Shown: piece after piece, positions 2,070 through 31,305 of the stretch
Layout of the letters: every line of letters starts with the position of its first letter
How positions within the stretch are numbered: position 1 is the stretch's first letter
From: Candidatus Shapirobacteria bacterium
Lineage (GTDB): Bacteria; Patescibacteriota; Microgenomatia; UBA12405
Length of the DNA: 43,986 nucleotides
Assembly (NCBI GenBank): GCA_003250375.1
Contig: QKGR01000019.1
Coordinates: 1-43,986, forward strand
Reading direction: 5' to 3'
Notes under the pieces: generated by a model
The model's database searches: none
Told to the model about the DNA's origin: nothing
Seen by the model: the letters and a program-made list of their open reading frames with translations, nothing else
Position numbers and translations under genes: made by a program

Positions 2070-2543
2070 GTGGTTTTCCGATGTCGTAAGAGAAATAGAT
2101 TTCCTGGATGTGGATACAGTGGAGGTTGGTATTTTGTAACCATAAATTCAAAATTTCATGGCGATGTTTTTGGTGTTGTAATTAATGGTAATTTTATTGA
2201 AAATGATTTTGGATTAATAGTTCGTAGGCAATGGTATTGGATGGTTGATCATTTTGGAATTTGGGGTGATGAGTTCGTGGTGATGCCAGATCATGTCCAT
2301 GGAATTGTATTTATTCCAAAGTTAGGGGCAGGTCTAGACCTGCCCGTACAAAAAAGAAATAATTTATCGAAAGTAATCGGTGCATTCAAAACAACGTCGT
2401 CAAAATTGATTCATGAAAAAGGTGAATTTGGATTTGTTTGGCAAAGATCGTTTTTTGATGAAATTATTAAAACGAAAAATCAATATAGGAATGTAAAAAG
2501 ATATGTTCGGTGCAATCCTAGGAACTGGAGGGGAAGTGAATAA
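2070..2543 (+). CDS. REP-associated tyrosine transposase (RayT) / IS200-like HUH Y1 transposase family protein
   Basis: The N-terminus (FPGCGYSGGWYFVTI), the HUH motif (MPDHVHGIVFI) and the C-terminal WQRSFFDEIIK...YVRCNPRNW all fit the RayT/transposase_17-like layout. GTG start in the ORF track. Confidence 0.7.
   Translation: MVFRCRKRNRFPGCGYSGGWYFVTINSKFHGDVFGVVINGNFIENDFGLIVRRQWYWMVDHFGIWGDEFVVMPDHVHGIVFIPKLGAGLDLPVQKRNNLSKVIGAFKTTSSKLIHEKGEFGFVWQRSFFDEIIKTKNQYRNVKRYVRCNPRNWRGSE
2326..2345. repeat. perfect 20-bp palindrome GGGCAGGTCTAGACCTGCCC embedded in the RayT-like CDS
   Basis: Read directly from the sequence. GGGCAGGTCT is the reverse complement of AGACCTGCCC. It encodes the GAGLDLP segment between the HUH motif and the C-terminal helix. 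Confidence 0.9.
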
Positions 2544-2607: not shown

Positions 2608-4215
2608 ATGAAATATATTTTTGTAATTGGTGGAGTGGTGTCTGGTTTGGGAAAGGGGATTGTAGCCTCGTCGGTGGGGTTACTGTTGAAGTCGTCAGGG
2701 TTTAAAGTCAATATGATTAAGATTGACCCGTACTTAAATGTGGATGCGGGAACAATGCGACCACAAGAACATGGGGAAACTTTTGTAACTGAAGATGGAG
2801 GAGAAATCGACCAGGATTTGGGAAATTACGAAAGATTTTTGAATCAAAATTTTTCCAAGGATAACAATATTACTTCGGGGAAAATTTACAAAACGATTAT
2901 TGAGAACGAAAGGGCGTTTAAGTACGAGGGGAGGGATGTGGAGATGATTCCCGACGTGCCAAATGAAGTAAAAAGAAGATTTTATGAAATGGAGAAGGAT
3001 TATGATTTTGTGGTGGTGGAGATTGGTGGTAGTACTGGGGACATTGAGAATTTACCTTTTTTGTATGCGGCCAGAGAAGTAGGTAGAGAGAGGGAGGCTA
3101 TGTACATTTTGGTGTCCTACGTGCCGTTTTTGAAAAATGTAGGAGAACTAAAAACAAAACCAACTCAGCATGCAATCCGGGGATTGCGGTCGACGGGAAT
3201 AAATCCCGATGTACTGATTACCCGAAGTGAAATTGGAATGGATGAACCAAGGTTGGAAACTTTGGCAAAACGATGTTTTTTGGATGAGGATGCAATTTTT
3301 GATGATGCCGATTGCTCTTCGATTTATGAGGTACCAGTGGTTTTGGAAAAACAAGGCTTGGCAAAAAAGATCTTTAAGAATTTTAAAATTAAGGGACATA
3401 GTCCCGATTTGAGGGAGTGGAAAAAATCTATAAGAAAGGGCGGGGAAAAAAAGGCGCATAATAATGCGCCTGTACAGATTGCTCTTGTGGGAAAATATGT
3501 GAATTTTGGGAAGGGGAAGCATGCGGATGTTTATGTGTCGGTGATGGAGGCATTGAGGCATGGGGCCATGGCCAATGATGTAAATTTGAAAATTGAAATG
3601 GTGGATTCGTCGGAATTAAATTTGGAAAAATTAAAAAAATTCGATGGAATCGTGGCGCCACAGGGTTGGGGAAGTAGGGGAACGGAGGGGATAATAAAAG
3701 CAATTAGAATAGCGCGAGAGAATAAAATTCCCTATTTGGGGTTATGTTTTGGGATGCAAATGGCGGTGATTGAATTTGGAAGAAATGTGCTGGGGCTTGA
3801 GGGAGCAAATTCGGAGGAAGTGGATCCAAAGGCAAAACATAAGGTGGTACATATTATGCCCGAGCAAAAAGAATATTTGGAAAAACACCAATATGGGGGC
3901 ACAATTCGACTAGGGGCTTGGCCATGTAAGATTGGGAAAGGGACAAAATTAAGTCAAATTTATGGAAAAGATTTGGTACAAGAAAGGCATAGGCATAGAT
4001 ATGAATTCAACAATGAGTTTAAAGAAAGGTACGAGCAAGCGGGGATGGTGTTTTCGGGGACTAGTCCGGATGGGAAATTAGTAGAGGCAATTGAATTGGT
4101 CGATCACCCATTTTTTGTGGCAACTCAATTTCATCCGGAGTACAAGTCCAGACCTTTGAGTCCACATCCAATATTTGTGGAGTTTGTGAGGAAATCTAAA
4201 AATAAGGTGGTATAA
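2608..4215 (+). CDS. pyrG: CTP synthase
   Basis: MKYIFVIGGVVSGLGKGI N-terminus, a GATase domain with GLCFGMQ, and HRHRYEFN. 535 aa, full length. Confidence 0.97.
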   Translation: MKYIFVIGGVVSGLGKGIVASSVGLLLKSSGFKVNMIKIDPYLNVDAGTMRPQEHGETFVTEDGGEIDQDLGNYERFLNQNFSKDNNITSGKIYKTIIENERAFKYEGRDVEMIPDVPNEVKRRFYEMEKDYDFVVVEIGGSTGDIENLPFLYAAREVGREREAMYILVSYVPFLKNVGELKTKPTQHAIRGLRSTGINPDVLITRSEIGMDEPRLETLAKRCFLDEDAIFDDADCSSIYEVPVVLEKQGLAKKIFKNFKIKGHSPDLREWKKSIRKGGEKKAHNNAPVQIALVGKYVNFGKGKHADVYVSVMEALRHGAMANDVNLKIEMVDSSELNLEKLKKFDGIVAPQGWGSRGTEGIIKAIRIARENKIPYLGLCFGMQMAVIEFGRNVLGLEGANSEEVDPKAKHKVVHIMPEQKEYLEKHQYGGTIRLGAWPCKIGKGTKLSQIYGKDLVQERHRHRYEFNNEFKERYEQAGMVFSGTSPDGKLVEAIELVDHPFFVATQFHPEYKSRPLSPHPIFVEFVRKSKNKVV

Positions 4216-7346: not shown

Positions 7347-7491
7347 GAATATTAATTTTTAATTTATAATTTCAAATTTTTAAACGAAAACGGCCTCGTT
7401 ACCGAGGCGCGAGATAAATCAGTTTGATATTCCTCGGTGAGATGCTTCGTCTCTGCTGTTTAGCAGATCACTCACTGTCTTCGGTAGGACA
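7347..7491 (-). promoter_or_regulatory. rplJ 5' leader, candidate L10-leader-type autoregulatory RNA with an attenuator hairpin
   Basis: About 145-nt untranslated leader between the predicted promoter and the rplJ ATG. On the minus strand it contains GGCCTCG-gtaa-CGAGGCC followed by GTTTTCGTTT (plus coordinates about 7392-7409). The family assignment is an inference. Confidence 0.4.
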
Positions 7492-7497
7492 GGTTGT

Positions 7498-7525
7498 ATT
7501 ATAGCTTAAATTTGGCGATGGTCAA
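7498..7525 (-). promoter_or_regulatory. sigma70-type promoter for rplJ-rplL
   Basis: On the minus strand: TTGACC (7525-7520), 16-nt spacer, TATAAT (7503-7498). The -35 overlaps the stop codon of the upstream small ORF. Confidence 0.55.
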
Positions 7526-7701
7526 GATCGAGAATTTCTGGGAGTAAAAACTGAAACTAGATGTTTGACTGCTTCTTTAAGAGCGAGCTGAGTGGCTATT
7601 GGGCTTCCGTCGGGAGAAGTAGCTCCTATTGCTTCGATTTTTTGAAGTTGTTCAGAAAAGGATAAGGTAGGGGATTCTTTTTGCTCGGGTTTTGTAGTCA
7701 T
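7522..7701 (-). CDS. hypothetical small protein (59 aa), probably leaderless
   Basis: The start was moved to the internal ATG at 7701 (MTTKPEQKE...). A consensus promoter ends 6 nt upstream of it and lies inside the longer track ORF. Confidence 0.4.
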   Translation of the reverse strand: MTTKPEQKESPTLSFSEQLQKIEAIGATSPDGSPIATQLALKEAVKHLVSVFTPRNSRS

Positions 7702-7707
7702 GTGGTA

Positions 7708-7736
7708 ATTATAACATAAAAATACCATAATGTCAA
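7708..7736 (-). promoter_or_regulatory. consensus sigma70-type promoter
   Basis: On the minus strand: TTGACA (7736-7731), 17-nt spacer, TATAAT (7713-7708). The ATG at 7701 follows after 6 nt. Confidence 0.55.
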
Positions 7737-7880
7737 GTTATAGGATATGTGTGGAAGTTGAACTTTGGGGTGGACATTAGGTGGATTTGAGCCTAAAATC
7801 AAAAGGTTAGAAATTGTGATTTGCAAAATCAGGATAAAATTTATCCTGGCTTTGTAGGGCACAGATTAAAGGAGGCTAGT

Positions 7881-8060
7881 ATGCAAAACAAGGCTGAGGC
7901 GTTGAAGGTAGTTAATGGAATACAATCGAGTTTGGGCGATAAAAAGTTAATGATGGGTGTAGTGGGGAAGGAGTGGGGTGTGGTAAAAACTCTTAATTCT
8001 GAACAATTGGCGACAATGCTTAGGAGTCGACTCGGACGAGGAGAAATTAGGCGGAGATAG
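7881..8060 (+). CDS. hypothetical small protein (59 aa)
   Basis: The internal ATG at 7881 is preceded by AGGAGG 6 nt upstream. The TTG start at 7821 in the ORF track is less likely. Confidence 0.4.
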   Translation: MQNKAEALKVVNGIQSSLGDKKLMMGVVGKEWGVVKTLNSEQLATMLRSRLGRGEIRRR

Positions 8061-8080
8061 TTTTTGGGGATAGAATAGAA

Positions 8081-9160
8081 TTGATGATGAAAAGAATTGT
8101 GGCAGGAATAATGCTTCTGGTGGCATCGGGGCTGGGAGTGTGGTGGGTGTATGGAAATTTGACCTGGGTGGATTCGGGGGTAAGAAGGAAGAAAGAAGTG
8201 CAGGAAATGCCGCTGAGTAAATATAATTATGATGAGCTGAGGGAAAGAGGTGGAATTGCAGGCGAGTTTGAACTGGGAGGGAAAATTCAGGCGGTAATCG
8301 ATAGGCGGGATAATTGCGTGGGAGCAAATTGCCTGCCCGAGGCCGATTATAGTTTTGAAACTAAGCAATTTAAGTTTAAAACTGATGGCCGGTGGATGTC
8401 GGGGATGATAAATATGCCAAATTCGGTGCTAGAGTGTGCGATGAATCTAAAAAATGATTGTAGTGCCAAGAAAGTACCGGCAATAGTAATGGTACGGGGG
8501 TTTGCGGAGACGGCAGGGTATTATTCGGGGTCGGGGAGTTGGCGGATTGCCGATAGGTTGGCGTCGAAGGGCTACGCCACAGTGTCGTTGGATTTTTTGG
8601 GCTTTGCCGATTCGGATATGCCTTCGGAAGATATTTTGGAAGCGAGGTTTGAGAAGGTGCCGGAGCTAATGGATTTGTTGGCGACAGTGAAAAGTTTGAA
8701 TTTTGTGGATAGTAGCAAGATTGGGATTTGGGCGCATAGCAATGGAGGTCAAATTACTTTGTCGGCGCTGGAGACAATGGGAGGGTATTATCCGACAGTG
8801 TTGTGGGCGCCAATGACCAATCCTTTTCCCCAGAGCGTGCTGGAGACGATTGACGACGATGAGGCGGGTAGGATAGTGCGGGCAAAAATTGAAGAGTTTG
8901 GCCAGAGCTACGATTTTCGGCAGTATGCTTTTGAAAATTATTATAATTGGATTGATTCGCCAGTGCTAATTCATCAGGGGACGGCGGATGAGTGGTGCGA
9001 GCTTAGTTGGCAGCAGGAAGTGGTGAGTAAACTTAAAGGATTTGGGAAGACAGCCGAGCTGGATGTGCTAATTGGGGACGATCATAATTTGTCTAAAAAT
9101 TGGTTGGAGGTGGTGCAGAAGGATGTGGAATTTTACAATCAGAGGCTAGGAAATTTCTAA
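8081..9160 (+). CDS. alpha/beta hydrolase (S9 peptidase / dienelactone-hydrolase-like) with an N-terminal membrane anchor
   Basis: Hydrophobic N-terminus (IVAGIMLLVASGLGVWWV). Nucleophile elbow GIWAHSNGG. A C-terminal D...H region (GTADEW, GDDHN). Confidence 0.7.
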   Translation: MMMKRIVAGIMLLVASGLGVWWVYGNLTWVDSGVRRKKEVQEMPLSKYNYDELRERGGIAGEFELGGKIQAVIDRRDNCVGANCLPEADYSFETKQFKFKTDGRWMSGMINMPNSVLECAMNLKNDCSAKKVPAIVMVRGFAETAGYYSGSGSWRIADRLASKGYATVSLDFLGFADSDMPSEDILEARFEKVPELMDLLATVKSLNFVDSSKIGIWAHSNGGQITLSALETMGGYYPTVLWAPMTNPFPQSVLETIDDDEAGRIVRAKIEEFGQSYDFRQYAFENYYNWIDSPVLIHQGTADEWCELSWQQEVVSKLKGFGKTAELDVLIGDDHNLSKNWLEVVQKDVEFYNQRLGNF

Positions 9161-9673
9161 GTCGAGGAGGAGAGTTTGAAATTTTTGGTACTGGTTGGGG
9201 AAAACAAAATATGATTCGATTTGATTTAAATCGATCCATTTGAGGGCTTTTATTTCCTCAATTTGAGTCTGAATTTCGGATACTTGTCCAAGGAATTCGA
9301 CGAAAAATTGGGTGCGTTGTTGGCCTCGTCGCCAAATACCTTTTTTGTGAAAGGTGCTGACGACTACTTCGTCGGGCCACTCATAACAATCGATGATGGA
9401 ACTTTGTTTTAGGATTTTAAATTTAGGGCAGCCTAATTCTTCTGATAGTTCTCGGATGATGGCTTGAGCGGGTGTTTCGTTTTGGTCGACTCCACCACCG
9501 GGCATGTCCCATTCATTGTCCTTAAAACTTTTCTTTTGAATAATCAGTACTTGGTTGTCCTTTATGATTAGGGCGGATGTACTTTGGCGATAGTCGAGTT
9601 GATCTCGATTGAATAGTGAATTGTTGTCCATGTCTGGTTGGAATAGTGTAGTATATTTATATATGAGCCACAA
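9146..9673 (-). CDS. NUDIX hydrolase
   Basis: Nudix box GGGVDQNETPAQAIIRELSEELG. An alternative start at 9631 (MDNNSLF) is possible. Confidence 0.8.
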   Translation of the reverse strand: MWLIYKYTTLFQPDMDNNSLFNRDQLDYRQSTSALIIKDNQVLIIQKKSFKDNEWDMPGGGVDQNETPAQAIIRELSEELGCPKFKILKQSSIIDCYEWPDEVVVSTFHKKGIWRRGQQRTQFFVEFLGQVSEIQTQIEEIKALKWIDLNQIESYFVFPNQYQKFQTLLLDLEIS

Positions 9674-9714
9674 GGTTGTTTTGGTGGATGTGGGGAAGTA
9701 TTTTTTCTGATTTT

Positions 9715-10287
9715 ATGAAAGTAATTTTAGTTAGACACGCAAAAATAGATAGAGGAAATGGTATTGTTCAGGCTGAAGACGACCATATTATTGTAGACGA
9801 AGATACTATGGTAAAGGTAGATAAAGCGCAAGTCGCTGTGTCTGACTCGGATGTGGTCTTTTGTTCAGATTTGAATAGAGCCAAAGAAACAGTAAAACTA
9901 TTGTTTCCAAATAGAAAAGACATTGTATATTCCGAGTTGCTACGAGAATATGTGAGGCCGTCGAGATTTGTGGGTAAAGATAAAAAAGAATTAGTGAACT
10001 TCTGGGAAGTTGAACATAAACAAGACAGATATGATCCTTTTTGGAAACCAGAAGACGGCGAGTCGTATTTTGAATGTGCGAGTAGAGCGGAGAAATTTTA
10101 CAGAAAATTGCTTGAAGTTAAAGAAACTGGAGTCCAGAAGGTTGTGGTAGTAGGCCATGGTACATTGTTTAGACATTTGGTTTGTGCTTTAGTAGGAGTG
10201 GATTGGAAAGAGAATCCTAGAATTGGAATAGATTTGTTGAGGAGTTTTTCTTGGGATAATTTAGAATCAAAGAATTATGAGATTTAG
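9715..10287 (+). CDS. histidine phosphatase family protein (phosphoglycerate-mutase-like)
   Basis: MKVILVRHAK (RH motif) and VVVVGHGTLFRHL (second catalytic His). The start was moved to the ATG at 9715. Confidence 0.7.
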   Translation: MKVILVRHAKIDRGNGIVQAEDDHIIVDEDTMVKVDKAQVAVSDSDVVFCSDLNRAKETVKLLFPNRKDIVYSELLREYVRPSRFVGKDKKELVNFWEVEHKQDRYDPFWKPEDGESYFECASRAEKFYRKLLEVKETGVQKVVVVGHGTLFRHLVCALVGVDWKENPRIGIDLLRSFSWDNLESKNYEI

Positions 10288-10366
10288 ATAGGTTGAACGA
10301 TGTTGGTTTTTAGCGTATCAGTGTGATATTATTGAACATTGAATTCGTTATCTATTTTTCAGATAT

Positions 10367-10783
10367 ATGGAATTACCAATAAAAGTAGAAGGTGTATTGT
10401 TTAGTAAGGTTGATGGTCGTTTTCAGTTTCTGTTGATAAAACGAAGTATTGAAGATGGTGGCTTTTGGCAGCCATTAACTGGAACACTTGAAGATGGTGA
10501 AAAAGTTTTGGACTGTTTAAGAAGAGAGCTAATTGAAGAAATTGGAACTGAAAATCCTAAGGAAATTTCAGAAGATTTTTTTCGATTTGACTGGAAGAAT
10601 AAGCGAGGTGAAACTATAGTTGAATTAGTTTATGGTGTTGAATTGGAGCCAAATTCAAAAGTTGTACTAAGTCATGAGCATACTGACTATAAATGGTGTG
10701 AATATGAAGAAGCAATCCAGTTGTTAGGGAGAGAAAACAATAAAAAGTCACTTGAGGCTTTTGTTGCTGCTTTTTCTAATTAA
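10367..10783 (+). CDS. NUDIX hydrolase
   Basis: Nudix box GTLEDGEKVLDCLRRELIEEIG. Confidence 0.8.
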   Translation: MELPIKVEGVLFSKVDGRFQFLLIKRSIEDGGFWQPLTGTLEDGEKVLDCLRRELIEEIGTENPKEISEDFFRFDWKNKRGETIVELVYGVELEPNSKVVLSHEHTDYKWCEYEEAIQLLGRENNKKSLEAFVAAFSN

Positions 10784-10803
10784 GAATTTTTGATTTAAAT
10801 ATA

Positions 10804-11613
10804 ATGAATAAAATAACCATTTTGGGTTCTGGGGATACATTGGGTACTCCAGTTGTTGGTGATCATATTCAGCAAATTAAAACTAAACGTACTCGTTTTG
10901 GATTACTGTTGGAAATAAACGGTAAGAAAATTTTAATTGATACTAATCCAGATTTGAGGGAGCAATGTCTGCGGCTTGGATTAGATTTGAAAACGATAGA
11001 TAACATATTCGTGACCCATACCCATCCTGATCATGTAAATGGAATGGGAGAATTTTTTTATAGAAAAGAAGCGCCGATACCTACGTATCATTTAGAACAT
11101 CCACTAATCAATAGTCACACTGATTCTTTTAGGTATTTGGAGCGAGAAAAAGTGCTTAATTTTTTGGCGTTTGAGAATTATCAACCAATAAAGTTAGAGA
11201 ATGGTATGGTCGTGACTCCAATCGAATTAAACCATGGTTTTCCTTGTAGTGGTTTTGTAATAGAGTTTGATAACACTAAGATTGGAATTGTTTCAGATAC
11301 GAATCTTAAGTTAAAGGAAAAATCTTTGGACTTACTAAACAATTGCGATATTCTTTTTGCAGATGCGTTTTCAGAAGACTTGGAACAGGTGTCTAGTTTA
11401 TATGATCGCTGTGGAATTACAACGCCAAATTTAGAAAATGAGTGGTTTCATATGACAATTAGTGAGGCTATTGATTTGCAACGGAAAACAAATTCAAAAA
11501 AACTATATACGGTACATATGAGTAGCTTTATGTCATCTCATGACAAGCTAGTTGATAAGTATCAGACGGATAATGTTGTTGTGGGTTATGATTTGTGCGA
11601 GATACAGATTTAG
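10804..11613 (+). CDS. MBL-fold metallo-hydrolase, PhnP-like (cyclic phosphodiesterase-like)
   Basis: ILGSGDTLGTPVVG N-terminus, ILIDTNPDL and the THTHPDHVNG metal-binding motif. The layout resembles PhnP-type phosphoribosyl cyclic phosphodiesterases. Confidence 0.7.
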   Translation: MNKITILGSGDTLGTPVVGDHIQQIKTKRTRFGLLLEINGKKILIDTNPDLREQCLRLGLDLKTIDNIFVTHTHPDHVNGMGEFFYRKEAPIPTYHLEHPLINSHTDSFRYLEREKVLNFLAFENYQPIKLENGMVVTPIELNHGFPCSGFVIEFDNTKIGIVSDTNLKLKEKSLDLLNNCDILFADAFSEDLEQVSSLYDRCGITTPNLENEWFHMTISEAIDLQRKTNSKKLYTVHMSSFMSSHDKLVDKYQTDNVVVGYDLCEIQI

Positions 11614-11689
11614 TAGGTATATGTAGGAAAAGTTGATTAATATTGGAATAACAAAAATGTATATTTATTGGGTATAATTGGAGCGTCAA

Positions 11690-12250
11690 ATGAGAATAAA
11701 TATCATTGGTCCGAGCGGATCAGGGAAAACAACTCTTTCAAAGTGGTTGGCCAAGAAAGAAAGGATTAAGTCGATAAATCTTGATAAGAAGTTTATAGAT
11801 TTAAGAAGATCAAATAGAAAGAAATTTGTATTTTTGGATCAGATAAAGATTGATAAAAATATTGATGAGTGTATAAGTGGAAAGGATTGGATAATTGAAG
11901 GGATATATCCGATTGATAAAGTATTACAGGCTTCTGACTTTATTGTTTTTGTAAAGCCACCAATGATCGTGTCGCTTTGGGGGGTTTGGAATAGATATAT
12001 GAGAAATAAATACCAGCGACAGAAGTTTGGTTTTTTAAGCTATTTAAACCTAACAAAGGTAGTGTTAAAGCAATACTTGTGTAAAAAGAAATTCTTTACC
12101 ATTTCGAATCGAACATACAATTATCCAACTTTATCTACAGTAGAGGAGATTGTGTATGGGAAATATTGGCAGAAAGTGGTTCGAGTTCCTCATGGTCGCA
12201 GTTTCAGAAAAATGATTGAAAAGGACTCTGCCTTATTAAATAAGCGGTAG
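11690..12250 (+). CDS. P-loop NTPase / nucleotide-kinase-like protein (adenylate-kinase or FlaR-like)
   Basis: Walker A IIGPSGSGKTTL followed by INLDKKF. The start was moved to the ATG at 11690, which is preceded by TATAAT and GGAG. Confidence 0.6.
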   Translation: MRINIIGPSGSGKTTLSKWLAKKERIKSINLDKKFIDLRRSNRKKFVFLDQIKIDKNIDECISGKDWIIEGIYPIDKVLQASDFIVFVKPPMIVSLWGVWNRYMRNKYQRQKFGFLSYLNLTKVVLKQYLCKKKFFTISNRTYNYPTLSTVEEIVYGKYWQKVVRVPHGRSFRKMIEKDSALLNKR

Positions 12251-12272
12251 TTTGGTGTGTTAAAATAGTCCT

Positions 12273-12833
12273 ATGAAAGCATATTTTTCAGCATCAAGAT
12301 ATTATCGGGATCAAAACATTGATAACTACAATAAGATCGTAGAAATGTTGAAAGGAAATGATTGTCGCATACTTGAGAATACCTCAAGATTGTTCCCAAA
12401 AGATTCTAGTAAGATTGAGGATAGAGTGAATGGATACAAGAAGATGTTGGACATGATCGATAAAGCTGATTTTTCAGTATTTGAAGCATCTTTTCCATCG
12501 ACCTTGCATATTGGACATGAAATCACATTGGCTATAGATAAAGGCAAGCCTGTAATTGTTCTATACACAAAAGGAAGCGAGCCGATGTTGTTTAGGGGTA
12601 TTCAAAATGACAAAATTGTATGGGTAGAATACAACCTAGATAATTTAGAGGAGAAATTAGCTGAAGCGATTGTTCAGGTAAAGAACATTCAAGATGTGAG
12701 ATTTAATTTCTTTGTGTCACCACAAATATTGAATTTTCTTGATTGGGTAGCCAAAGAGAGAAGAATACCAAGATCTGTTTTCTTAAGATCTCTAATTGAG
12801 AAGGAAATGAAAAAAGAAAAGGAGTATAAATAG
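12273..12833 (+). CDS. nucleoside 2-deoxyribosyltransferase-like domain fused to a C-terminal ribbon-helix-helix-like segment
   Basis: KAYFSAS..., then DKADFSVFEASFPSTLHIGHEITLAIDKGKPVIVLY, which resembles the NDT/Rcl-like fold signature. The C-terminal VAKERRIPRSVFLRSLIEKEMKKE resembles a CopG/RHH strand-helix. This is a motif-level call only. Confidence 0.45.
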   Translation: MKAYFSASRYYRDQNIDNYNKIVEMLKGNDCRILENTSRLFPKDSSKIEDRVNGYKKMLDMIDKADFSVFEASFPSTLHIGHEITLAIDKGKPVIVLYTKGSEPMLFRGIQNDKIVWVEYNLDNLEEKLAEAIVQVKNIQDVRFNFFVSPQILNFLDWVAKERRIPRSVFLRSLIEKEMKKEKEYK

Positions 12834-12836
12834 GAT

Positions 12837-13538
12837 TTATTCGGAAGCGTTGACTTGTGATTGGATAAAAATATCTTTGAAATTAGCTATGTGATTTTTG
12901 AGATATTTGATGTCGTCGTCAGATAGTAGATTTGTGTCGTTGGCTAGTTTTAATAAGTTTTCAAACTTAGAAAGTGAATAAATATCTAATTTGAGTTCCT
13001 TTGATAAGAAATCGTCGATGCCGTAGCTGTAGATACTAATGAAGGATAGATTGTTGTAACCAAGACTTCGAAGGTATTTTAGTGATTTTGACAAAGTGAG
13101 GCCTTTGGCTAATACATCATCAATAATAATGATGTGAGAATCTTTTGATGGGGCTATACCAATAACTTTTCTGAAATCACCATAGGACTTTGATTCTTTT
13201 CGAAGAAAAAATAAGGGAAGTTCAAGTTTGTCAGCTAGAGCGGCTGCAAAATAGGAACCGCCGCTTTCTAAACCACAGATAGTGTCGATTTGTTGATTCT
13301 TGAGGTGTTCTGTAATTTTTGATATGACGATTTTTCGATTGTCGGGGTTGGTGACAAGCTTCTTGATGTCGATGTAGATAGGGGAGAAGAAGTTGGGGGT
13401 TGGCTCGTAAAGTTTGTTTTTTGAGAAGCCAAATGAGCCTGGAGTATTGAGGATGATTTCTTCAATGGGAAAGTTGGAATTCATATTTTTTCGATTATCT
13501 AAAGGACGTATTTTTACATAGTTATTGATAATTGTCAA
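12837..13538 (-). CDS. phosphoribosyltransferase (orotate-PRTase-like)
   Basis: PRPP-binding loop HIIIIDDVLAKGLTLS, FFSPIYIDIKKL and GLESGG, as in type I PRTases and PyrE. Confidence 0.7.
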   Translation of the reverse strand: MTIINNYVKIRPLDNRKNMNSNFPIEEIILNTPGSFGFSKNKLYEPTPNFFSPIYIDIKKLVTNPDNRKIVISKITEHLKNQQIDTICGLESGGSYFAAALADKLELPLFFLRKESKSYGDFRKVIGIAPSKDSHIIIIDDVLAKGLTLSKSLKYLRSLGYNNLSFISIYSYGIDDFLSKELKLDIYSLSKFENLLKLANDTNLLSDDDIKYLKNHIANFKDIFIQSQVNASE

Positions 13539-13548
13539 AAGAAGGATG

Positions 13549-14184
13549 TTAAAGGGTGTTCATATGGATCGATTCGGGGAAGAATTGGTATTTTTCGGTA
13601 ACTATAAACATAGCATGATTGTCGTCAACTTCTTGTAATTTTCCTGAAGCATCGGTAATTTTGTTGATGTCCCACCAGCGGTGTTCGAAGCCGAGAATGG
13701 TAAATTTGCGGTCGTCGTGGGAGTAGTGTTTTTCGGGGTCGGCGATGACAACTTCGTTTTTCATGGTGTCGATGTGGGTGACAATGCTATAGTGGCCGGC
13801 ATCGTCGTCGTCATCCTCGTAGTAGTCGTCCTCATCGTCCTCGTCGTCGGGCCAGTCGAATAAGCCTTGCCATTCGACGCCGACAGGATAGTGGTGTTGG
13901 TTGACGATGCTGGAGAGGTCGTTGAGGCTTGAGTTGAATTTAAACCAAAATTGGAGCTCGTTGGGGAAGAGACGACTTACGGCGAGGGCCAGATCGTTGA
14001 TGGTGGCGCCGTGGACTTTGATTTTGTCCTCAATGCCGGCGGCAGCGACGATTTGAGCTTGGCTAACTTCGTAGCCGAGGAAACCCAAAAGCATTTGAAT
14101 TACGGCCGGTCCACAGTTGTAGACATTGTCTTGGGAAATTCTTTGGAGCGTAGGAAAGTGTTTCCTATTTAAGCTGTTTGGCAT
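13549..14184 (-). CDS. papain-like (C39-like) cysteine peptidase domain protein with a poly-acidic insert
   Basis: YNCGPAVIQMLLGFLGY (catalytic Cys context) and a downstream GHYSIV (His). It contains the insert DDEDDEDDYYEDDDDD. It overlaps the ddl-like stop by 20 nt. Confidence 0.5.
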   Translation of the reverse strand: MPNSLNRKHFPTLQRISQDNVYNCGPAVIQMLLGFLGYEVSQAQIVAAAGIEDKIKVHGATINDLALAVSRLFPNELQFWFKFNSSLNDLSSIVNQHHYPVGVEWQGLFDWPDDEDDEDDYYEDDDDDAGHYSIVTHIDTMKNEVVIADPEKHYSHDDRKFTILGFEHRWWDINKITDASGKLQEVDDNHAMFIVTEKYQFFPESIHMNTL

Positions 14185-15280
14185 ATTTGGTGAGCAAAGA
14201 GGCGACGATGTCCTCGAAGGCTATACCATGCATGGCGGCGACCTCGGTGAAAGGAAGTCCCATGTCGGGGCCGAAAGCGGTGTTGGGGTTGCTGTCGGTG
14301 AAATAGGGAATACCGGTTAGTTCGTCGTAGCGGACATCAAATTTGGCGTAATCTTTGTGCTGGAGAGCGTTGAAGGCTCGGACAGACAAACGGGCAAGCT
14401 TGGTCTGAAGCGGCTCGGAAACATGAGTATATTTGTAGGCTCGGGCGTCTTCGTAACTTTCGATGGAGGTGAAAAAATGTTTGCCGTCGGGCTTGGTTCT
14501 AAAGATTTTTTGGCCCATCCAAACGTGTTTTTTGGTACCATCATCGAAAACACAGACGGTAATTTCGGGTCCGTCGATGAACTGTTCGACGATAACAGGT
14601 TGTTTGTAGGTGGTAATCATTTTGTCGACTTTACGCTGAGCGTCGCGGAGAGTTTCCTTGACGGCTTTGTTGTCGATGCCAACGGAACCACCAGAACCAC
14701 AGAGTTTGACGATAAGGGGAGTGCCGAGGTCTGATTGGACAGCTGTACCAGCACGACGAATGTATTGGAAGGCGGGAGTGGGAACGTCGTAGGCCATTAG
14801 AAGTCTTTTGGTAAGATTTCTGTCGTTGCCAATAACCATGCCGGTCATGCCAGCGCCTGTGTAGGGAATATTGGATAATTCCAGAGCAGCAGGAACTGAA
14901 GTTTGAAGAGTGTCTTTACCTTTGAGGGTGTCAACTAAATTGAGAACAACGTTGGGTTTGTCGACCAAAAGATTAGTAAGAAAGTATTGATTTCCAGGAA
15001 TGGCTTTGACATTGATACCGAGTTTTTTGATTACTTCGGCGACTTCGGCGGCGCGATCCTCAACTTCAACTTCGGCTTCATAGGAATCCTTGGTGGGGAA
15101 CCATTCGCGCTCGACGTGAGAATAGGCGACGGTAACCAAATCGAGTTTTTTAAGAGCTTGTTTGTCGATATTGAGATGATATTTTTGTCTTTTTGGAGTG
15201 GACGGGGCTTTGCTGGCTTCAACTACTTTTTCTGGAGAATCGTTAATTTCAGGCTTTTTTCTATTTAAAATATTGAACAT
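14165..15280 (-). CDS. ddl: D-alanine--D-alanine ligase family ATP-grasp enzyme with an N-terminal extension
   Basis: ATP-grasp layout (IVKLCGSGGSVGI, VIVEQFIDGPEITV, the C-terminal FTDSNPNTAFGP region). It is adjacent to the murF-like gene. Confidence 0.7.
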   Translation of the reverse strand: MFNILNRKKPEINDSPEKVVEASKAPSTPKRQKYHLNIDKQALKKLDLVTVAYSHVEREWFPTKDSYEAEVEVEDRAAEVAEVIKKLGINVKAIPGNQYFLTNLLVDKPNVVLNLVDTLKGKDTLQTSVPAALELSNIPYTGAGMTGMVIGNDRNLTKRLLMAYDVPTPAFQYIRRAGTAVQSDLGTPLIVKLCGSGGSVGIDNKAVKETLRDAQRKVDKMITTYKQPVIVEQFIDGPEITVCVFDDGTKKHVWMGQKIFRTKPDGKHFFTSIESYEDARAYKYTHVSEPLQTKLARLSVRAFNALQHKDYAKFDVRYDELTGIPYFTDSNPNTAFGPDMGLPFTEVAAMHGIAFEDIVASLLTKYAKQLK

Positions 15281-15331
15281 ATAAAAAATATACAGTAAAA
15301 AATCTTGGTAGGGAAGACTTAAATTTAAAAG

Positions 15332-16693
15332 TTACTGATGTTTTGAATCGTAGAAGCTTTGTTTTTGGTGGAGCCAATAGGGAGTTTGGCGACAGAGAAG
15401 TTGTTGGTCGGAAGGATTGCTAAGAATGGTTTTAATTAGTTCTTCAAGATAAATTGTGTTTTGAGAGCCTTTGAAAAGTATAGAAGAGTGAGGGTTATTT
15501 GAAAGATAGTCGAGAAGAAAATCTTTGGCTTGCCACCAGTGTTGGAAAGTTTGGACTTCTTTTGATGGTTTGAAGTATTTTTGGGTTTCGGGGCCAATAC
15601 CAATAATTAAATCGGCAGATTGGAGGGCTTGTTTGAAAAGAGTTTGGTGTTCAATTGGGGATTGGTCGCCAAGTTCGCGCATGTCGCCAATAATGGCGAT
15701 TTTAGGCGATGGAAATTTGGCTAAAAGATGGAGCATTTCTTGGGTTGGAGTAGGGGAGGAATTGTAGCTACTGTCGATGATTAGGGAATCATTGATGCCA
15801 TGAAGCAGAGATGAGCGTCCGGGTGGAAGGTGGAAGTGTTTTTGAATGTTGTTGATGATGGTTTTTGGAGCCAGTTCCAAGGTAATTCCTACAAGGAAAG
15901 CCGAAGCCAAGGAGACGTTGTAAATTTCAGGTAGGACAAATCGGGGAAGTTTGATGGAATAGGTTGAATTTTGAAATTTGAATTCAAAATTGAAACCTTG
16001 GGGACCGGAAATAGTTTTGGTGATTTTTAAATCAGAAGCTGAATTGTGGCTGAGAGTGAGTTTTTTGGCCAAACAAATTTGAGTAGTGGCGACAACGGTT
16101 GGATCGTCTTGGTTGATGATGGCAGTGCCGGTGGAGGGGAGAGAGTTAATTAATTTGGCTTTTTCTTGGCCAATTAATTGAATAATTTGCGATTGTCGTT
16201 TTGGGCCAGTAAGTTTTGAATCGACAAGATGATCGAAATTAAATGAATGGACCGAATTGACGTTTAGAAAAATTCCAATGTCGGGCTGAGCTATTTTGAG
16301 TAAGTACGACATATTTTTGGGAGAATCGGGAGAGTCGATGCCCATTTCGAGAATAAGGATGTCGTATGTTTTCCAATTAAATAAGAGCTGGAGAGGGGCT
16401 TTGATAGCGTTGATGATCCATTTTGAGATATTAAAATTATCCATGTGGAGGTCGAGGATAGAGAGGGGGAGGCCCGATTCGGAATTGCCGCCATAGTTGG
16501 TTTTGACTTTGAAAGAGCTTTGGAGGGCGGATTGGACGGCCAGCATGGTAGAGGATTTGCCGGCAGAACCGGTAATGCCGATGATATTCAATTTTCTGCC
16601 TTGGAGCTTTTGAAGAAGTTTAATTTTGTTGAGCTGGATAATGGCGATTATTCGAATGTAACTAAGAAAGATAAGTCCGATTTTTTGATACAT
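15332..16693 (-). CDS. murF: Mur ligase family protein (MurF-like UDP-MurNAc-tripeptide--D-Ala-D-Ala ligase)
   Basis: IIGITGSAGKSST P-loop and ILEMGIDSPD...IGIFLNVNSVH, typical of the Mur ligase central domain. Confidence 0.75.
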   Translation of the reverse strand: MYQKIGLIFLSYIRIIAIIQLNKIKLLQKLQGRKLNIIGITGSAGKSSTMLAVQSALQSSFKVKTNYGGNSESGLPLSILDLHMDNFNISKWIINAIKAPLQLLFNWKTYDILILEMGIDSPDSPKNMSYLLKIAQPDIGIFLNVNSVHSFNFDHLVDSKLTGPKRQSQIIQLIGQEKAKLINSLPSTGTAIINQDDPTVVATTQICLAKKLTLSHNSASDLKITKTISGPQGFNFEFKFQNSTYSIKLPRFVLPEIYNVSLASAFLVGITLELAPKTIINNIQKHFHLPPGRSSLLHGINDSLIIDSSYNSSPTPTQEMLHLLAKFPSPKIAIIGDMRELGDQSPIEHQTLFKQALQSADLIIGIGPETQKYFKPSKEVQTFQHWWQAKDFLLDYLSNNPHSSILFKGSQNTIYLEELIKTILSNPSDQQLLCRQTPYWLHQKQSFYDSKHQ

Positions 16694-21042: not shown

Positions 21043-22677
21043 ATGGTTGCTGATGCTTTAATAAATGTTTTAAATGCTGACGATCTAATTGTGAATTCTC
21101 AGAGAAGGGGATTTGATTTAGATGAATATAAAGAAAAGACTGGGCATGATAAAGTTCACATTTCACCAGCGAGGCTTAGTGAACACTATACTGGACGCAA
21201 GAGGCTCGATAGTGATTTATTAGAAAACTGTAAAAAGATTAATGAAAAGATTGGTACTGTGAAGCATAGGAATAATCCTGATCAACAGGAATATTTAGAT
21301 AGCCAATTAGATAAGTATGTCGTTGAGCATCCACAATGGGAGCTCAGGTTGAGAAATGGAGGGATTGTGGATGTTTTGGGTTTTGGACTTGAGGTAGCAA
21401 AAGCAGGTATGGGGCAACATGATAGTGGTTTTAATCCAGATTTTATAACAGAGGCTTTTGATGTCGATAATCCTGCGCGTACTAAATGCGCTGTGTTTAA
21501 TATGATGTATCAGGTTATTTGTGAACGTACGATTGGTAAGTTTAATCCTGCATTAGGAGAAAGTTATTCTTTTATTCATACTGGTAGTGCCTTTGCGTTG
21601 GATTTACCTAGAAATAAGAATGATTACATAAAAATGATTAGACATGCGTTTGTGACTTTGATTTCAGAAGACGATGATGGAAGATTGAGATATACCCCGA
21701 TTGATCCTTATCATGAGGAGTCGGGCACTTCGGTTGAACAGAAATTAGATTTTTCAGAAACAAGATCACTTGATTCTTTGGAGATGGTTCTTAATTTAGT
21801 GTTTGCTGATTATTGGAATGGGTATAGTTTGGATAAAGCAGGTAAACAAGTTAAGGGTGTTGCATTGACGGAAATGGTGAAATCCGCTCCTGATGCGGTT
21901 AATGCTGGAGAAGTTGCTTTATTGTTGAGTTATCAATGGAGAGGGGTGTTTGAAGACAGTACAAAGGCTCGAGTAAATTTTGAAAGTAAAAGAAAGATCT
22001 TAGCTGAACGAGTACATAATTTCCAAATGGAGTTAGAACGATTTAAATCTGAAGGGAGAGATGTTGATATGAAAACAAGTTCATATTTACGAACTTTAAG
22101 GGATCACTGTGTTTCAATGTACAACCGACAGAATGAAAATTATCAGGAATTAAAACACAAAATGGAATTTGTTGAAAATAATAGAACTGAGTTTAAAGAA
22201 TCAATGAAAACAGCGGTAGGTGGCTTGATGGAAGAAATAGTAAAAGGTGGAGAGGTTAATTCTAAGGCCGCTTTAATATTCTTTGATTTGGTTGATAATA
22301 TTGGAAGTTTTGGAATAGAAATGGATGAAGAAGATTGGGTGAAGATTGTAGGATTTATTGAATCCCAGAGAGCGGAGAACCTAGATGAGTGGAAAAAAAC
22401 AATGTCTCCAGGTGCAAGACGAGAGTGGAAAAGTTACTTAAGAAGGCATTATGAAAATACTTGGGGTACTCAACCTGTTGAGACCGTTGTGTTGAAGGAA
22501 GATAATCTGCAGGTCGATGAAAATGATTCAAGATACGCTTACACACTGTATCGAGCCCAGGTACTCAAATTGATCAGTGCAGCTGGTGTGAATAGCTGGA
22601 AGAAATTTTTACCAAAAAGTCCTCCTGAAGGAAGTTACTCTGACTTGATGGTTAGACTAATACAACAGGAAGATTAA
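21043..22677 (+). CDS. hypothetical protein (544 aa)
   Basis: Long uninterrupted ORF with an A/T-rich -10-like sequence just upstream of the ATG. No family recognised. Confidence 0.55.
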   Translation: MVADALINVLNADDLIVNSQRRGFDLDEYKEKTGHDKVHISPARLSEHYTGRKRLDSDLLENCKKINEKIGTVKHRNNPDQQEYLDSQLDKYVVEHPQWELRLRNGGIVDVLGFGLEVAKAGMGQHDSGFNPDFITEAFDVDNPARTKCAVFNMMYQVICERTIGKFNPALGESYSFIHTGSAFALDLPRNKNDYIKMIRHAFVTLISEDDDGRLRYTPIDPYHEESGTSVEQKLDFSETRSLDSLEMVLNLVFADYWNGYSLDKAGKQVKGVALTEMVKSAPDAVNAGEVALLLSYQWRGVFEDSTKARVNFESKRKILAERVHNFQMELERFKSEGRDVDMKTSSYLRTLRDHCVSMYNRQNENYQELKHKMEFVENNRTEFKESMKTAVGGLMEEIVKGGEVNSKAALIFFDLVDNIGSFGIEMDEEDWVKIVGFIESQRAENLDEWKKTMSPGARREWKSYLRRHYENTWGTQPVETVVLKEDNLQVDENDSRYAYTLYRAQVLKLISAAGVNSWKKFLPKSPPEGSYSDLMVRLIQQED

Positions 22678-22738: not shown

Positions 22739-23650
22739 ATGTCAGTAGATAACAATACTAATAAACCCCCGTTTGACGGTTTTAAGCCTATTACATTTGA
22801 ACCAGGAGAACTGAGCGAAATACCAGTTGGTGCTCCTAGTGAACTTAAACCATATGCAGGAAGTTTTACGCCTTTAGAAGATTTTAAAAAAGTGGATGCT
22901 AAACCGACAGAAGGAAACCTAGAGGGAGGTGCTGAATTGGTGGAGGAAGGAAGAAGGTTGGTAGATTCTATTGCTGAGACAATGTTTGATTCAGAAGATA
23001 GATTGAGGAGCGCTGCTACTCATTATCTTGACACATATACTGATTATCATGGAGGAGAAAGCTCGGCTACGGCAGATGTTGGAGTTGAGCCGGTGCTGAA
23101 CAATTTGAATAATCATTTGGCGATACATGGTGAGGTTGGCGATGAGTTTGCTAGAGTAGTAGAAAGTGTTCAGTCGGGAGTAGAGCAATCGATGAATTTA
23201 CTTAGAGAATTGAGGGATAGCCCGGCTGTCGATGGAAGGGCTATGTTGGCAGGTACTGAGATTCAGGAGTTGTATAAGCATATGGTGGCAACCGAAAGTG
23301 TTGATGAAGCTAAAAGATTGGCTGGTGAAATTAGTGCTATAATCGAAAGGGAAGGAAATTTTACGGATAGTAGTATAGAGAATTCTACGACAGCAGTATC
23401 TGTGGTGGAAGAAACCGCAGCAAATCAGAGCAATAGTTTTGAAGAATGGAGAAGGGAATATGGTGAAATTCACGAAGATAGACCAGTAGAAACATTAAAT
23501 GCATTCTCATTAGATTTAAGAGCACTTCAAGAAGTTGCACGTAGCAAAGGTGTGGAGTTTGGGGATAGAACTCGCTACTTATCCGGATCTGTGTCTGAAA
23601 TGAAAGCTACGTGGGATCGGTTTGAGTTGAAATATTTTTCGGAAAAATAA
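22739..23650 (+). CDS. hypothetical acidic protein (303 aa)
   Basis: ORF flanked by the perfect 49-bp direct repeats. No family recognised. Confidence 0.55.
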   Translation: MSVDNNTNKPPFDGFKPITFEPGELSEIPVGAPSELKPYAGSFTPLEDFKKVDAKPTEGNLEGGAELVEEGRRLVDSIAETMFDSEDRLRSAATHYLDTYTDYHGGESSATADVGVEPVLNNLNNHLAIHGEVGDEFARVVESVQSGVEQSMNLLRELRDSPAVDGRAMLAGTEIQELYKHMVATESVDEAKRLAGEISAIIEREGNFTDSSIENSTTAVSVVEETAANQSNSFEEWRREYGEIHEDRPVETLNAFSLDLRALQEVARSKGVEFGDRTRYLSGSVSEMKATWDRFELKYFSEK

Positions 23651-23838: not shown

Positions 23839-24291
23839 ATGTTGTGTCCTTATTGCGGTTTTGATGAGTCGAATGTGGTGGAATCGAGGGATGCTAAGGA
23901 AGGAAGAGCCACCCGAAGAAGGAGAGAGTGTGTGAAGTGTGGAAAAAGATTTACAACATACGAGGAAGTGGGAAACATTGAATTGAAAGTACAGAAAAAA
24001 GACGGACGAATCGAGGATTATAAAAGAGAGAAGTTGGAAAAGTGTATCGACAAGGCTTGTTGGAAATTGAGCAGTGAAGAAAAGAACAAACTATTGGATG
24101 AAATTGAAATGAGGCTTTTAAATTTTAGCTCGGTGGAAATTCCATCGAGGGAGATTGGAAGGATTGTGATGGAAAAACTTAAAGATTTTGATGAGGTGGC
24201 GTACATTCGTTTTGCCACGGTTTATTTGGATATCAAATCAATTAATGATTTTCAGGAATTAGTTAGTAATTTTAAAAAGAAAAATAAATAA
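23839..24291 (+). CDS. nrdR: transcriptional repressor NrdR
   Basis: MLCPYCGFDESNVVESRD...RRRRECVKCGKRFTTYE zinc ribbon plus an ATP-cone. SD AGGAGG upstream. Confidence 0.93.
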   Translation: MLCPYCGFDESNVVESRDAKEGRATRRRRECVKCGKRFTTYEEVGNIELKVQKKDGRIEDYKREKLEKCIDKACWKLSSEEKNKLLDEIEMRLLNFSSVEIPSREIGRIVMEKLKDFDEVAYIRFATVYLDIKSINDFQELVSNFKKKNK

Positions 24292-24293
24292 AA

Positions 24294-26885: not shown

Positions 26886-26943
26886 ATCCACCCCTAACCC
26901 CTCCTTTGACAAGGAGGGGAAATATAAACATAATTAAAAACAT

Positions 26944-27468
26944 ATGTCTGTAACAACCAAAACCGGTGATGATGGAAAAAGTAGATGGAGCCGCCTACAC
27001 CAAGGCTCCGGTGTGCCGAAGTGGGAAAAGATTGAAGTTGATAAGGATTGTGATTTGTTGGAAGCAGTCGGGAGTTTGGATGAATTGCAGGCGATGCTTG
27101 GGGTGGTGAAATTGAAGAATATTATGATAGGAGCGCCGCTGACCGATATTCAGAAAGATTTGTGGCAAATGATGGGTGTGTTGGCTTATGAAAAAGAGTG
27201 GAATGAAGTTGGGGATAGAATCGAATGGTTGGAAAAAGAAATTAAGGAAATGGAGGAGTCTTTGCCAAAAATTAGTGAGTTTGTGCTGCCTGGAGTGAGC
27301 GAAGTAGAGGCTGAATTAAATTTGGCTCGTACAATTTGCAGGAGAGCAGAAAGAAGATTGGTGGCTTTGTCCAAAGAGACTGGGTCTGGTAAAGTTGATA
27401 ATAGTTTGTTGATTTATATAAATAGAATGTCCGATTATTTATTTATTTTAGGAAGAGTTATTTTGTAG
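26944..27468 (+). CDS. pduO: PduO-type ATP:cob(I)alamin adenosyltransferase
   Basis: TKTGDDGKS N-terminal motif, LARTICRRAERRLV, and YINRMSDYLF. An extra roughly 20-aa insert follows the N-terminal motif. Confidence 0.85.
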   Translation: MSVTTKTGDDGKSRWSRLHQGSGVPKWEKIEVDKDCDLLEAVGSLDELQAMLGVVKLKNIMIGAPLTDIQKDLWQMMGVLAYEKEWNEVGDRIEWLEKEIKEMEESLPKISEFVLPGVSEVEAELNLARTICRRAERRLVALSKETGSGKVDNSLLIYINRMSDYLFILGRVIL

Positions 27469-30936: not shown

Positions 30937-30958
30937 TTAATCAGTTAATCAGTTAATC
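30935..30958. repeat. short tandem array of the octamer CAGTTAAT (about 3 units)
   Basis: AGTTAATCAGTTAATCAGTTAATC starts inside the thyX stop codon. Same unit as the array at 41173-41272. Confidence 0.85.
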
Positions 30959-30987
30959 GGATCGTTATAAGTTTATTTAAATATAAG

Positions 30988-31200: not shown

Positions 31201-31228
31201 AGTAAAATATGATAGTTAAATATTTCTT

Positions 31229-31287
31229 GTCATGATTTTTTTGCTTCACTCAAGTGCTGCGCCTTGAAATTACGCAAAAAACATGAC
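31229..31287 (+). other. long imperfect stem-loop upstream of glyA
   Basis: GTCATGATTTTTTTGC ... GCAAAAAACATGAC, with an inner CAAG-tgctgcgc-CTTG hairpin. Confidence 0.4.
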
Positions 31288-31305
31288 TGCGAAAATAAAT
31301 ATAAT

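Follow-up and report, generated by a model that had tools for sequence, protein, structure and literature searches.

Gene content between the L10 and L1 genes

The DNA analyzed here, hereafter called the window, is a stretch of 43,986 nucleotides (contig QKGR01000019.1) from Candidatus Shapirobacteria bacterium, and this DNA occurs in hydrothermal-vent metagenomes. At positions 9146–13538 it carries seven consecutive open reading frames (ORFs), which an initial annotation had described as an island of nucleotide- and ribose-phosphate-processing enzymes wedged into a ribosomal protein gene cluster. The seven ORFs were confirmed at these coordinates; the run and its nucleotide or phosphoribosyl signatures are real, and all the domain assignments hold at the superfamily level. 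The region is probably a mosaic, composed of a conserved module, a backbone and four hydrolases in a plastic slot, and not one system.

The first four genes encode the hydrolases. NUDIX1 (9146–9673, minus strand) matches the Pfam NUDIX profile (E-value 6.8e-17, 62.2 bits, cutoff 21.1); a histidine phosphatase of branch 1 (9715–10287, plus strand) matches His_Phos_1 (9.3e-18, 65 bits, cutoff 21.7); NUDIX2 (10367–10783, plus strand) again matches NUDIX (3.8e-16, 59.8 bits, cutoff 21.1); and a metallo-beta-lactamase (MBL) hydrolase (10804–11613, plus strand) matches Lactamase_B_2 (1.9e-21, 77 bits). The fifth gene (11690–12250, plus strand) encodes a P-loop protein, the sixth (12273–12833, plus strand) a fusion protein with a ribbon-helix-helix (RHH)-like C-terminus, and the seventh (12837–13538, minus strand) a phosphoribosyltransferase (PRTase) that exceeds the cutoff of Pribosyltran (2.7e-16, 59.7 bits). 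Five genes are above the Pfam cutoffs, and two are below: the P-loop protein has a weak match to AAA_18 (24.9 bits, cutoff 29.4), and the fusion protein reaches 23.6 bits against Nuc_deoxyrib_tr, under the cutoff of 28.8. The fusion had been called nucleoside deoxyribosyltransferase (NDT)-like, and this call was upheld by its AlphaFold2 model and Foldseek, which place the fold nearer to DNPH1/Rcl than to NDT itself.

The diagnostic motifs are intact in the translations: both Nudix boxes (GX5EX7REUXEEXGU), namely GGGVDQNETPAQAIIRELSEELG in NUDIX1 and GTLEDGEKVLDCLRRELIEEIG in NUDIX2, the HxHxDH motif, the RH...GHG pair, and the Walker A motif GPSGSGKT of the P-loop protein. According to the alignment with relatives, the likely true starts of NUDIX1 and of the PRTase are internal ATG codons, at 9631 and 13484, respectively.

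The position inside a ribosomal protein cluster is also confirmed, since the run lies between the L7/L12–L10 and L1–L11 genes, and the split itself is lineage-wide in Microgenomates. On the left edge of the gap, the minus strand encodes L7/L12 (6384–6788; Ribosomal_L12, 4.1e-23) and L10 (6825–7346; Ribosomal_L10, 3.9e-22); on the right edge, it encodes L1 and L11 (16763–18187; Ribosomal_L1, 1.5e-24; Ribosomal_L11_N, 2.2e-26). Beyond the seven genes, the gap holds a membrane-anchored S9 or alpha/beta hydrolase (8081–9160, plus strand; Peptidase_S9, 2.7e-09) and, at 13549–16693 on the minus strand, a C39-like peptidase, a Ddl-like ATP-grasp protein and a MurF-like ligase, all assigned by Pfam and representing the cell-wall backbone genes.

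Gene order across related loci

Loci around the fusion gene were taken from species-representative genomes and assemblies, and their ORFs were searched with the window proteins; the synteny counts refer to 85 non-redundant related loci. The L11–L1 and L10–L12 pairs are apart in every related locus holding both L10 and L1. The distance from L10 to L1, obtained for 55 related loci, ranges from 2063 to 14650 bp (median 7052), and is 9417 bp in the window. From the S9 hydrolase to the fusion gene there are −31 to 6721 bp (median 580, window 3113), and from the fusion gene to MurF −18 to 3646 bp (median 38, window 2499).

The frame of this gap recurs widely: L10 is found in 63 of the 85 loci, L1 in 62, and MurF in 63, usually converging on the fusion gene with −4 to +38 bp between them. 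In most relatives, the S9 hydrolase gene (56/85) comes before the fusion gene, and just 4 bp often separate the two. The Microgenomates backbone of the gap would then consist of the S9 hydrolase gene followed by the DNPH1-like/RHH gene, with MurF/Ddl facing them, and with variable slots in between.

The seven genes themselves have very different distributions. The P-loop gene occurs in 15/85 loci, always on the same strand and directly upstream of the fusion gene, and also in L092. The PRTase gene occurs in four (L016, L088, L089 and L090), always convergent and directly downstream of the fusion gene. An orthologue of NUDIX1 is present in a single locus (L030, 160 bits), in the same position and orientation as in the window, and the histidine phosphatase, NUDIX2 and MBL genes were found in none of the 85. 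The closest relatives examined (L088–L090, 60–65% identity) present the order S9 hydrolase, P-loop gene, fusion gene and convergent PRTase, in which the first two are adjacent, with no insert. Comparison with these loci therefore reveals a four-gene insert in the window, formed by NUDIX1 (minus strand), the histidine phosphatase, NUDIX2 and the MBL gene. In L092, the slot between the S9 hydrolase and the fusion gene is occupied by a sugar operon with an MBL gene, which indicates that this slot takes up differing cargo.

The initial annotation had proposed to check the gene order in related genomes, and the set of seven did not prove to be conserved, with only three of the seven recurring together. 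Absence of co-localization, with assignment to unrelated housekeeping families, had been named there as what would speak against a common system, and this is largely the situation observed, apart from those three genes. Since the co-localization of the seven genes is not conserved, the clustering can be shown only as an accumulation in a variable slot. A profile scan of metagenome contigs with the MBL alignment retrieved only distant MBL proteins (at most 39% identity), with no second homologue of the island nearby, and was uninformative for synteny.

The codon composition sets three of the inserted genes apart. The histidine phosphatase, NUDIX2 and MBL genes have the lowest GC content at third codon positions (GC3) in the window, 0.21–0.31 against 0.34–0.62 elsewhere; NUDIX2, at 0.21, is the minimum, and the histidine phosphatase has 0.31. 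Apart from this low GC3 no sign of mobility was detected: repeats flanking the insert gave only chance-size matches, Pfam revealed no integrase in the 7–18 kb part of the window, and the two tRNA genes found by Rfam are located about 28 kb from the island. A mobile island with an integrase was therefore rejected.

One feature of the window weighs against such a mosaic. From the histidine phosphatase to the fusion, five genes are co-directional with gaps of 20–79 bp, and they may be co-transcribed in this organism; a search for RNA-seq runs returned only DNA metagenomes of a hydrothermal vent.

Some neighbouring features were also recorded. The 734 bp that separate L10 from the S9 hydrolase (7347–8080) contain a perfect consensus promoter on the minus strand (TTGACA-17-TATAAT with TG, 7736–7708) and two small ORFs, a minus-strand one of about 59 aa that starts at an ATG near 7701 and a plus-strand one of 59 aa (7881–8060) after AAGGAGG. 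The small ORFs had no Pfam match, and an L10 leader was not found by Rfam. On the other side of the run, the C39-like papain-fold peptidase and the Ddl-like ATP-grasp genes (13549–15280, minus strand) overlap by 20 bp. This pair occurs in just 4/85 loci, and a canonical Ddl is often encoded in addition; the ATP-grasp protein is 74–83% identical in L001, L011 and L021, being as conserved as L11 and L12.

At the scale of the whole window (1–43986), the strand composition is extremely asymmetric, with 11910 G against 6031 C (skew +0.33) and A about equal to T. The skew holds at third codon positions whatever the gene strand, and the ribosomal protein genes are on the C-rich strand. In the same orientation, the skew of 94 related loci (L001–L094) has its median at +0.30 and reaches +0.46. 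For the Microgenomates order UBA1400, 29.8% C versus 15.0% G was described and unidirectional replication was proposed (PMC7143001).

Genes of nucleotide metabolism are located at 2608–4215, 23839–27468 and 30226–32739, around the ribosomal/NusG/SecE cluster. They encode CTP synthase, NrdR, a class II-type ribonucleotide reductase (RNR) with a TSCPD domain, a PduO-type cobalamin adenosyltransferase, ThyX and serine hydroxymethyltransferase. The NrdR–RNR genes beside SecE–NusG–L11–L1 are conserved in relatives. Between an NTP-transferase and the CTP synthase, an ORF at 2070–2543 (plus strand) has a weak match to the IS200-like Y1 transposases (Pfam Y1_Tnp, 2.4e-06). An ORF of 1307 aa (32794–36717, plus strand) and several others of 300–540 aa, including 21043–22677 and 22739–23650, have no Pfam match.

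The P-loop protein, the phosphoribosyltransferase and the four hydrolases

The P-loop gene directly precedes the fusion gene, which is co-directional with it and starts 22 bp after its end; a TATAAT box (11672–11677) and a GGAG sequence are located just 5′ of it. Its recurrence in relatives a few bases before the fusion gene is the sole well-supported functional link in the island. A homologue search with the protein gave two matches only, and a 17-member alignment was built from the related loci instead. In this alignment, the Walker A motif and an hhhhEG strand are present, and the C-terminal half is specific to a small clade. The initial annotation had suggested a PhnN-type kinase. Neither the protein nor the 17-member alignment matched PhnN or Guanylate_kin in Pfam or NCBIfam, and the AlphaFold2 model (pLDDT 82.5) has as top Foldseek matches UMP/CMP kinase, adenylate kinase, hCINAP and uridine kinase (TM-score 0.55–0.62); with a nucleoside monophosphate (NMP) kinase fold and no PhnN family match, the PhnN identity was rejected.

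Weak matches were obtained to AAA_18, to cytidylate kinase and to shikimate kinase, and the NCBIfam models for the "DNA topology modulation protein" gave 51 bits (PRK08118, cutoff 215) and 47 bits (PRK07261). The protein shares the P-loop NMP-kinase fold of UMP/CMP kinase, adenylate kinase and hCINAP/AK6, but differs from these and from the FlaR-type kinases (DNA topology modulation protein FlaR) in that no family cutoff is reached and the TM-score is just 0.55–0.62. On the basis of its model, it is an NMP-kinase-like P-loop protein.

The MBL protein keeps a complete HxHxDH/H/D/H metal site, with residues H72, H74, D76, H77, H144, D165 and H238 invariant in the orthologue alignment, and it shares fold and site with its two best PDB matches, 6b9v (8.5e-14) and the E. 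coli PhnP structure 3g1p (6.8e-06). The first of these is a Mn-dependent FAD-photoproduct diphosphatase (PMC7599082). The PhnP-like label of the initial annotation stands for the fold and the HxHxDH site, and fails for the equivalog score and the linkage to phn genes: the protein reaches 57.8 bits against TIGR03307, far under the cutoff of 272.25, has no C-P lyase neighbours, and lacks the Cys-rich N-terminal insert that its orthologues retain. Judged from sequence, it is a PhnP-family (COG1235-type) binuclear hydrolase in the broad sense only.

Unlike PhnP, the MBL orthologues (45–65% identity) are tied to PIG-L, GT20 and HAD genes. Five of their genomic contexts were looked up, and in four of them (L092, L093, L175 and L176) the MBL orthologue (59–63% identity) is the last enzyme of a sugar operon, in the order epimerase, 317–320-aa protein, PIG-L deacetylase, GT20 glycosyltransferase and MBL. 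A HAD phosphatase gene often comes next, and the end of the GT20 gene and the beginning of the MBL gene overlap by 4 bp. The remaining context bears no relation to these four. These operons of candidate phyla radiation (CPR) bacteria are located at L092:6058–11437, L093:4197–10825, L175:3850–9254 and L176:500–5244; the epimerase is an NAD-epimerase and the 317–320-aa protein has no Pfam match. By its content, the operon resembles a pathway of amino-sugar phosphate or glycoside metabolism. The MBL gene of the window is detached from this usual sugar operon.

These data bear on the proposal of a single ribose-phosphate/phosphoribosyl pyrophosphate (PRPP) salvage route that would comprise all seven genes or only the five co-directional ones. 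In it, the NUDIX proteins would release ribose phosphates, the MBL would open a phosphoribosyl cyclic phosphate like PhnP, the kinase would produce PRPP like PhnN, and the PRTase would use it up. In favour of it, all seven proteins act on nucleotides or phospho-sugars at the superfamily level, the MBL is broadly of the PhnP family and some of its orthologues are named "phosphoribosyl 1,2-cyclic phosphate phosphodiesterase" by JGI, the gaps among the five plus-strand genes are short, and the window is rich in genes of nucleotide metabolism. We consider this route quite improbable: the PhnP equivalog score is low, the kinase has an NMP-kinase fold with no PhnN or guanylate-kinase match, the histidine phosphatase, NUDIX2 and MBL genes are missing from the related loci, the MBL orthologues accompany sugar genes, and neither phn (C-P lyase) nor ribose-1,5-bisphosphate genes are present among the window ORFs scanned.

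The remaining inserted hydrolases have only general assignments. NUDIX1 is RppH-like (75 bits, cutoff 116), NUDIX2 is NudB-like (62.8 bits, cutoff 103), and the histidine phosphatase, which presents the motifs VRHAK and VGHGT, is CobC-like (49.7 bits, cutoff 162.9). None of the three reached a specific NCBIfam equivalog, those of CobC, PspA and PGM being unreached by the histidine phosphatase, whose PDB and NCBIfam matches are weak and generic.

Mycobacterial MutT1 is a fusion of a NUDIX and a histidine-phosphatase domain. By this precedent, the histidine phosphatase and NUDIX2, perhaps with the MBL, could be a co-acquired unit for two-step nucleotide sanitation, in which the NUDIX diphosphatase acts first and the histidine phosphatase second. 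These genes follow one another on one strand, 79 and 20 bp apart, and have a common low GC3. On the other hand, the pair is absent from all 85 loci, the MBL orthologues have other partners, the unspecific matches of the histidine phosphatase include no PDB support for a MutT1-like protein, and the faint MutT1 match observed (E-value 0.0023) belongs to NUDIX1. Such a unit is unlikely.

The PRTase, called orotate phosphoribosyltransferase (OPRT)-like in the initial annotation, is a type I phosphoribosyltransferase and does resemble OPRTs. Its best PDB matches are OPRTs (1.6e-15, about 30% identity or less), and the SPIYID motif, the RKExKxYG catalytic loop and the IIDDVxxxG PRPP motif align with them. 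PyrE also gives its best NCBIfam matches, but the equivalog cutoffs are not reached (TIGR00336, 69.6 bits against 106.8; NF001729, 77 against 245). A promoter-like site for this gene is located at 13538–13510; a promoter and terminator scan of 7.3–14.3 kb gave 21 sites against 18.8 expected, which is the chance level.

NDT-like and PRTase domains also occur as effectors of antiphage defence, and the initial annotation had raised a nucleotide-targeting defence or detoxification module; its effectors would be like those of retron or Shosta-type systems. Weak PADLOC matches were found to PDC-S07 (the NUDIX proteins), ShosT (E-value 0.001) and VakA (1.8e-05), together with a PRTase-CE match (Pfam, 22.9 bits) and a partial one to Apyc1, and the slot is variable, like defence islands. 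The PADLOC matches, however, are all partial or at the superfamily level and constitute no system, and the OPRT likeness is far stronger. No reverse transcriptase was detected in the ORFs scanned, Rfam gives two tRNAs only and no other non-coding RNA, and no partner gene of a known system is present. The fusion gene is a core gene fixed in position across the clade, by murF and the ribosomal genes, unlike a mobile defence gene; it has no homologue in the phage database searched, and integrase and flanking repeats are lacking. A retron or Shosta-type system was rejected on the partial matches and the missing reverse transcriptase and non-coding RNA, and a defence role of any such kind is very improbable.

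The DNPH1-like/RHH fusion family

The sole new element of the region is the uncharacterized DNPH1-like/RHH family to which the fusion protein belongs. Residues 1–140 (12273–12692, plus strand) form a DNPH1/Rcl-like domain of the NDT superfamily, as indicated by Foldseek and by the profile comparison with the PDB. The AlphaFold2 model (pLDDT 85) finds DNPH1 as its best Foldseek match (E-value 1.3e-07, target-normalized TM-score 0.75–0.80), followed by BcmB, MilB and NDT, and a profile of 37 orthologues matches Rcl over residues 3–132 (3e-08). Some homologues carry a precomputed PF05014 match; the window protein is below that cutoff. Residues 141–186 (12693–12833, plus strand) form the RHH-like C-terminal domain, in which an extended DVRFNFF strand is followed by two helices (150–163 and 167–180 in the model). 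None of the solved DNPH1, BcmB, MilB and NDT structures matched here covers this second domain. A literature search for a DNPH1 or NDT domain fused to RHH found nothing relevant.

For Rcl, we take the catalytic triad to be Tyr13, Asp69 and Glu93, with Ser87 and Ser117 binding phosphate (rat numbering; D69 corresponds to human D80). In the fusion protein, Y4, S76 and E83 align with Tyr13, Ser87 and Glu93 and are invariant in the 37 orthologues. The catalytic Asp and Ser117 are not conserved, unlike in DNPH1/Rcl: the place of D69 is taken by M58, which varies, and that of S117 by P104, which is invariant. The protein has the DNPH1/Rcl fold, which it shares with the NDT superfamily members BcmB and MilB, and an incomplete set of the catalytic residues, with D69 and S117 replaced.

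The family is large. There are 587 full-length homologues, which, where named, are from Shapirobacteria, Woesebacteria or Microgenomates; counted as representatives of 50%-identity clusters, the family has 1549 members at E≤1e-3 and 794 at the stricter E≤1e-10, almost all of them with two domains and about 190 aa long. Residue conservation was counted in 134 full-length representatives. Y120 is kept in all of them; in the RHH domain, R172 is kept in 133, R143 in 130 and F144 in 125, and N145 is also conserved. The nucleophile E83 is kept in only 79/134, being otherwise L, I, Q or K, so that 41% of the family has lost it. Tandem paralogues are observed in some loci, with seven copies in L092 (11468–15428), four in L006 (3183–9738), and arrays also in L017, L018, L030 and L036. 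Of 40 tandem paralogues, about 12 have another residue in place of the Glu, and many such copies retain the RHH motif. Both the loss of the Glu and the arrays of up to seven copies distinguish the family from DNPH1/Rcl.

A ligand-sensing regulator would be expected to show just such a combination, a constant DNA-binding-type module beside a dispensable catalytic Glu. We therefore prefer to read the fusion as a nucleotide-responsive RHH regulator, which may have remained catalytic in the orthologue group of the window, and not as a plain enzyme. In the enzyme reading, the protein would be a (d)NMP N-glycosidase or (deoxy)ribosyl transferase, its RHH tail would only dimerize, and it would join the kinase and the PRTase in a three-enzyme module for recycling bases and (deoxy)ribose phosphate. 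Both DNPH1 and RHH proteins form dimers, which is compatible with such a tail; the three Rcl counterparts are invariant in the orthologues; and the adjacent genes encode a nucleotide-kinase-like protein and a PRTase, the second of which would recycle the freed base. The missing triad Asp, the Pro in place of S117, and the loss of the nucleophile in 41% of the family beside near-invariant basic residues in the RHH domain count against it, the last fitting DNA binding better than a dimerization tail. A plain enzyme is possible, although rather doubtful.

Some observations are unfavourable to the regulator. The RHH topology proposed in the initial annotation is seen in the model, but all the profile matches are below threshold (RHH_1, E-value 0.012; RHH_3, 0.03; CopG structure 7by2, 0.88), with a further weak RHH_1 match on one paralogue of the fusion. 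When the regions 5′ of the S9 hydrolase gene from 55 loci were searched by k-mers for an RHH operator, only AT-rich words resembling −10 boxes were returned. In addition, with its Tyr, Ser and Glu invariant in its own orthologue group, the window protein may be simply an enzyme.

The union of a nucleotide-metabolism fold with a nucleic-acid-binding domain has parallels in nucleotide regulation, where enzyme-derived sensors and nucleic-acid binding are combined in B. subtilis PurR, whose PRPP sensor is PRTase-like, in PyrR and in NrdR. The comparison is by analogy; the fold in the fusion is DNPH1-like, joined to RHH, and has no sequence relationship with these proteins. The fusion gene itself sits among nucleotide-metabolism genes, NrdR being encoded at 23839–24291.

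Under the regulator reading, the fusion would be a dimeric RHH DNA-binding protein whose DNPH1-derived domain binds a ligand of the nucleoside 5′-monophosphate type. The orthologue in the window may still cleave this ligand, because the Tyr, Ser and nucleophile Glu are kept. The protein would couple the nucleotide status to the transcription of the adjoining genes, and the kinase would make or remove the ligand. The gap in this genome, for its part, probably has two layers: one common to the closest relatives, with the NMP-kinase-like P-loop protein, the DNPH1-like/RHH fusion and the convergent orotate-type PRTase; and a lineage-specific insert between the S9 hydrolase and the kinase, with the NUDIX, histidine phosphatase, NUDIX and PhnP-family MBL genes, whose products would act independently on by-products of nucleotide or sugar-phosphate metabolism. 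The regulatory function, the ligand and the separate action of each of the four hydrolases are inferred here. The data support no pathway that links all seven genes; a loose theme of nucleotide salvage and house-cleaning in a reduced organism is plausible.

As a seven-gene system, the island has little significance, its hydrolases being common ones accumulated in a variable slot. The break between L11–L1 and L10–L12, in turn, represents a conserved and plastic gene slot across Microgenomates. As for the fusion, we tentatively propose that the proteins of about 190 aa may constitute a large undescribed family, specific to Microgenomates, of nucleotide-responsive transcription factors or enzyme-repressors, with one orthologue fixed between the S9 hydrolase and murF, within the divided ribosomal cluster, and often paired with the kinase, and with tandem Glu-less paralogues that would diversify the ligand specificity. 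Because of its fixed position by nucleotide and cell-wall genes, the family is a testable candidate for nucleotide sensing or processing in CPR bacteria that rely on scavenged nucleotides. If this is true, salvage-dependent symbionts could read the nucleotide supply from their hosts through the proteins of this family.

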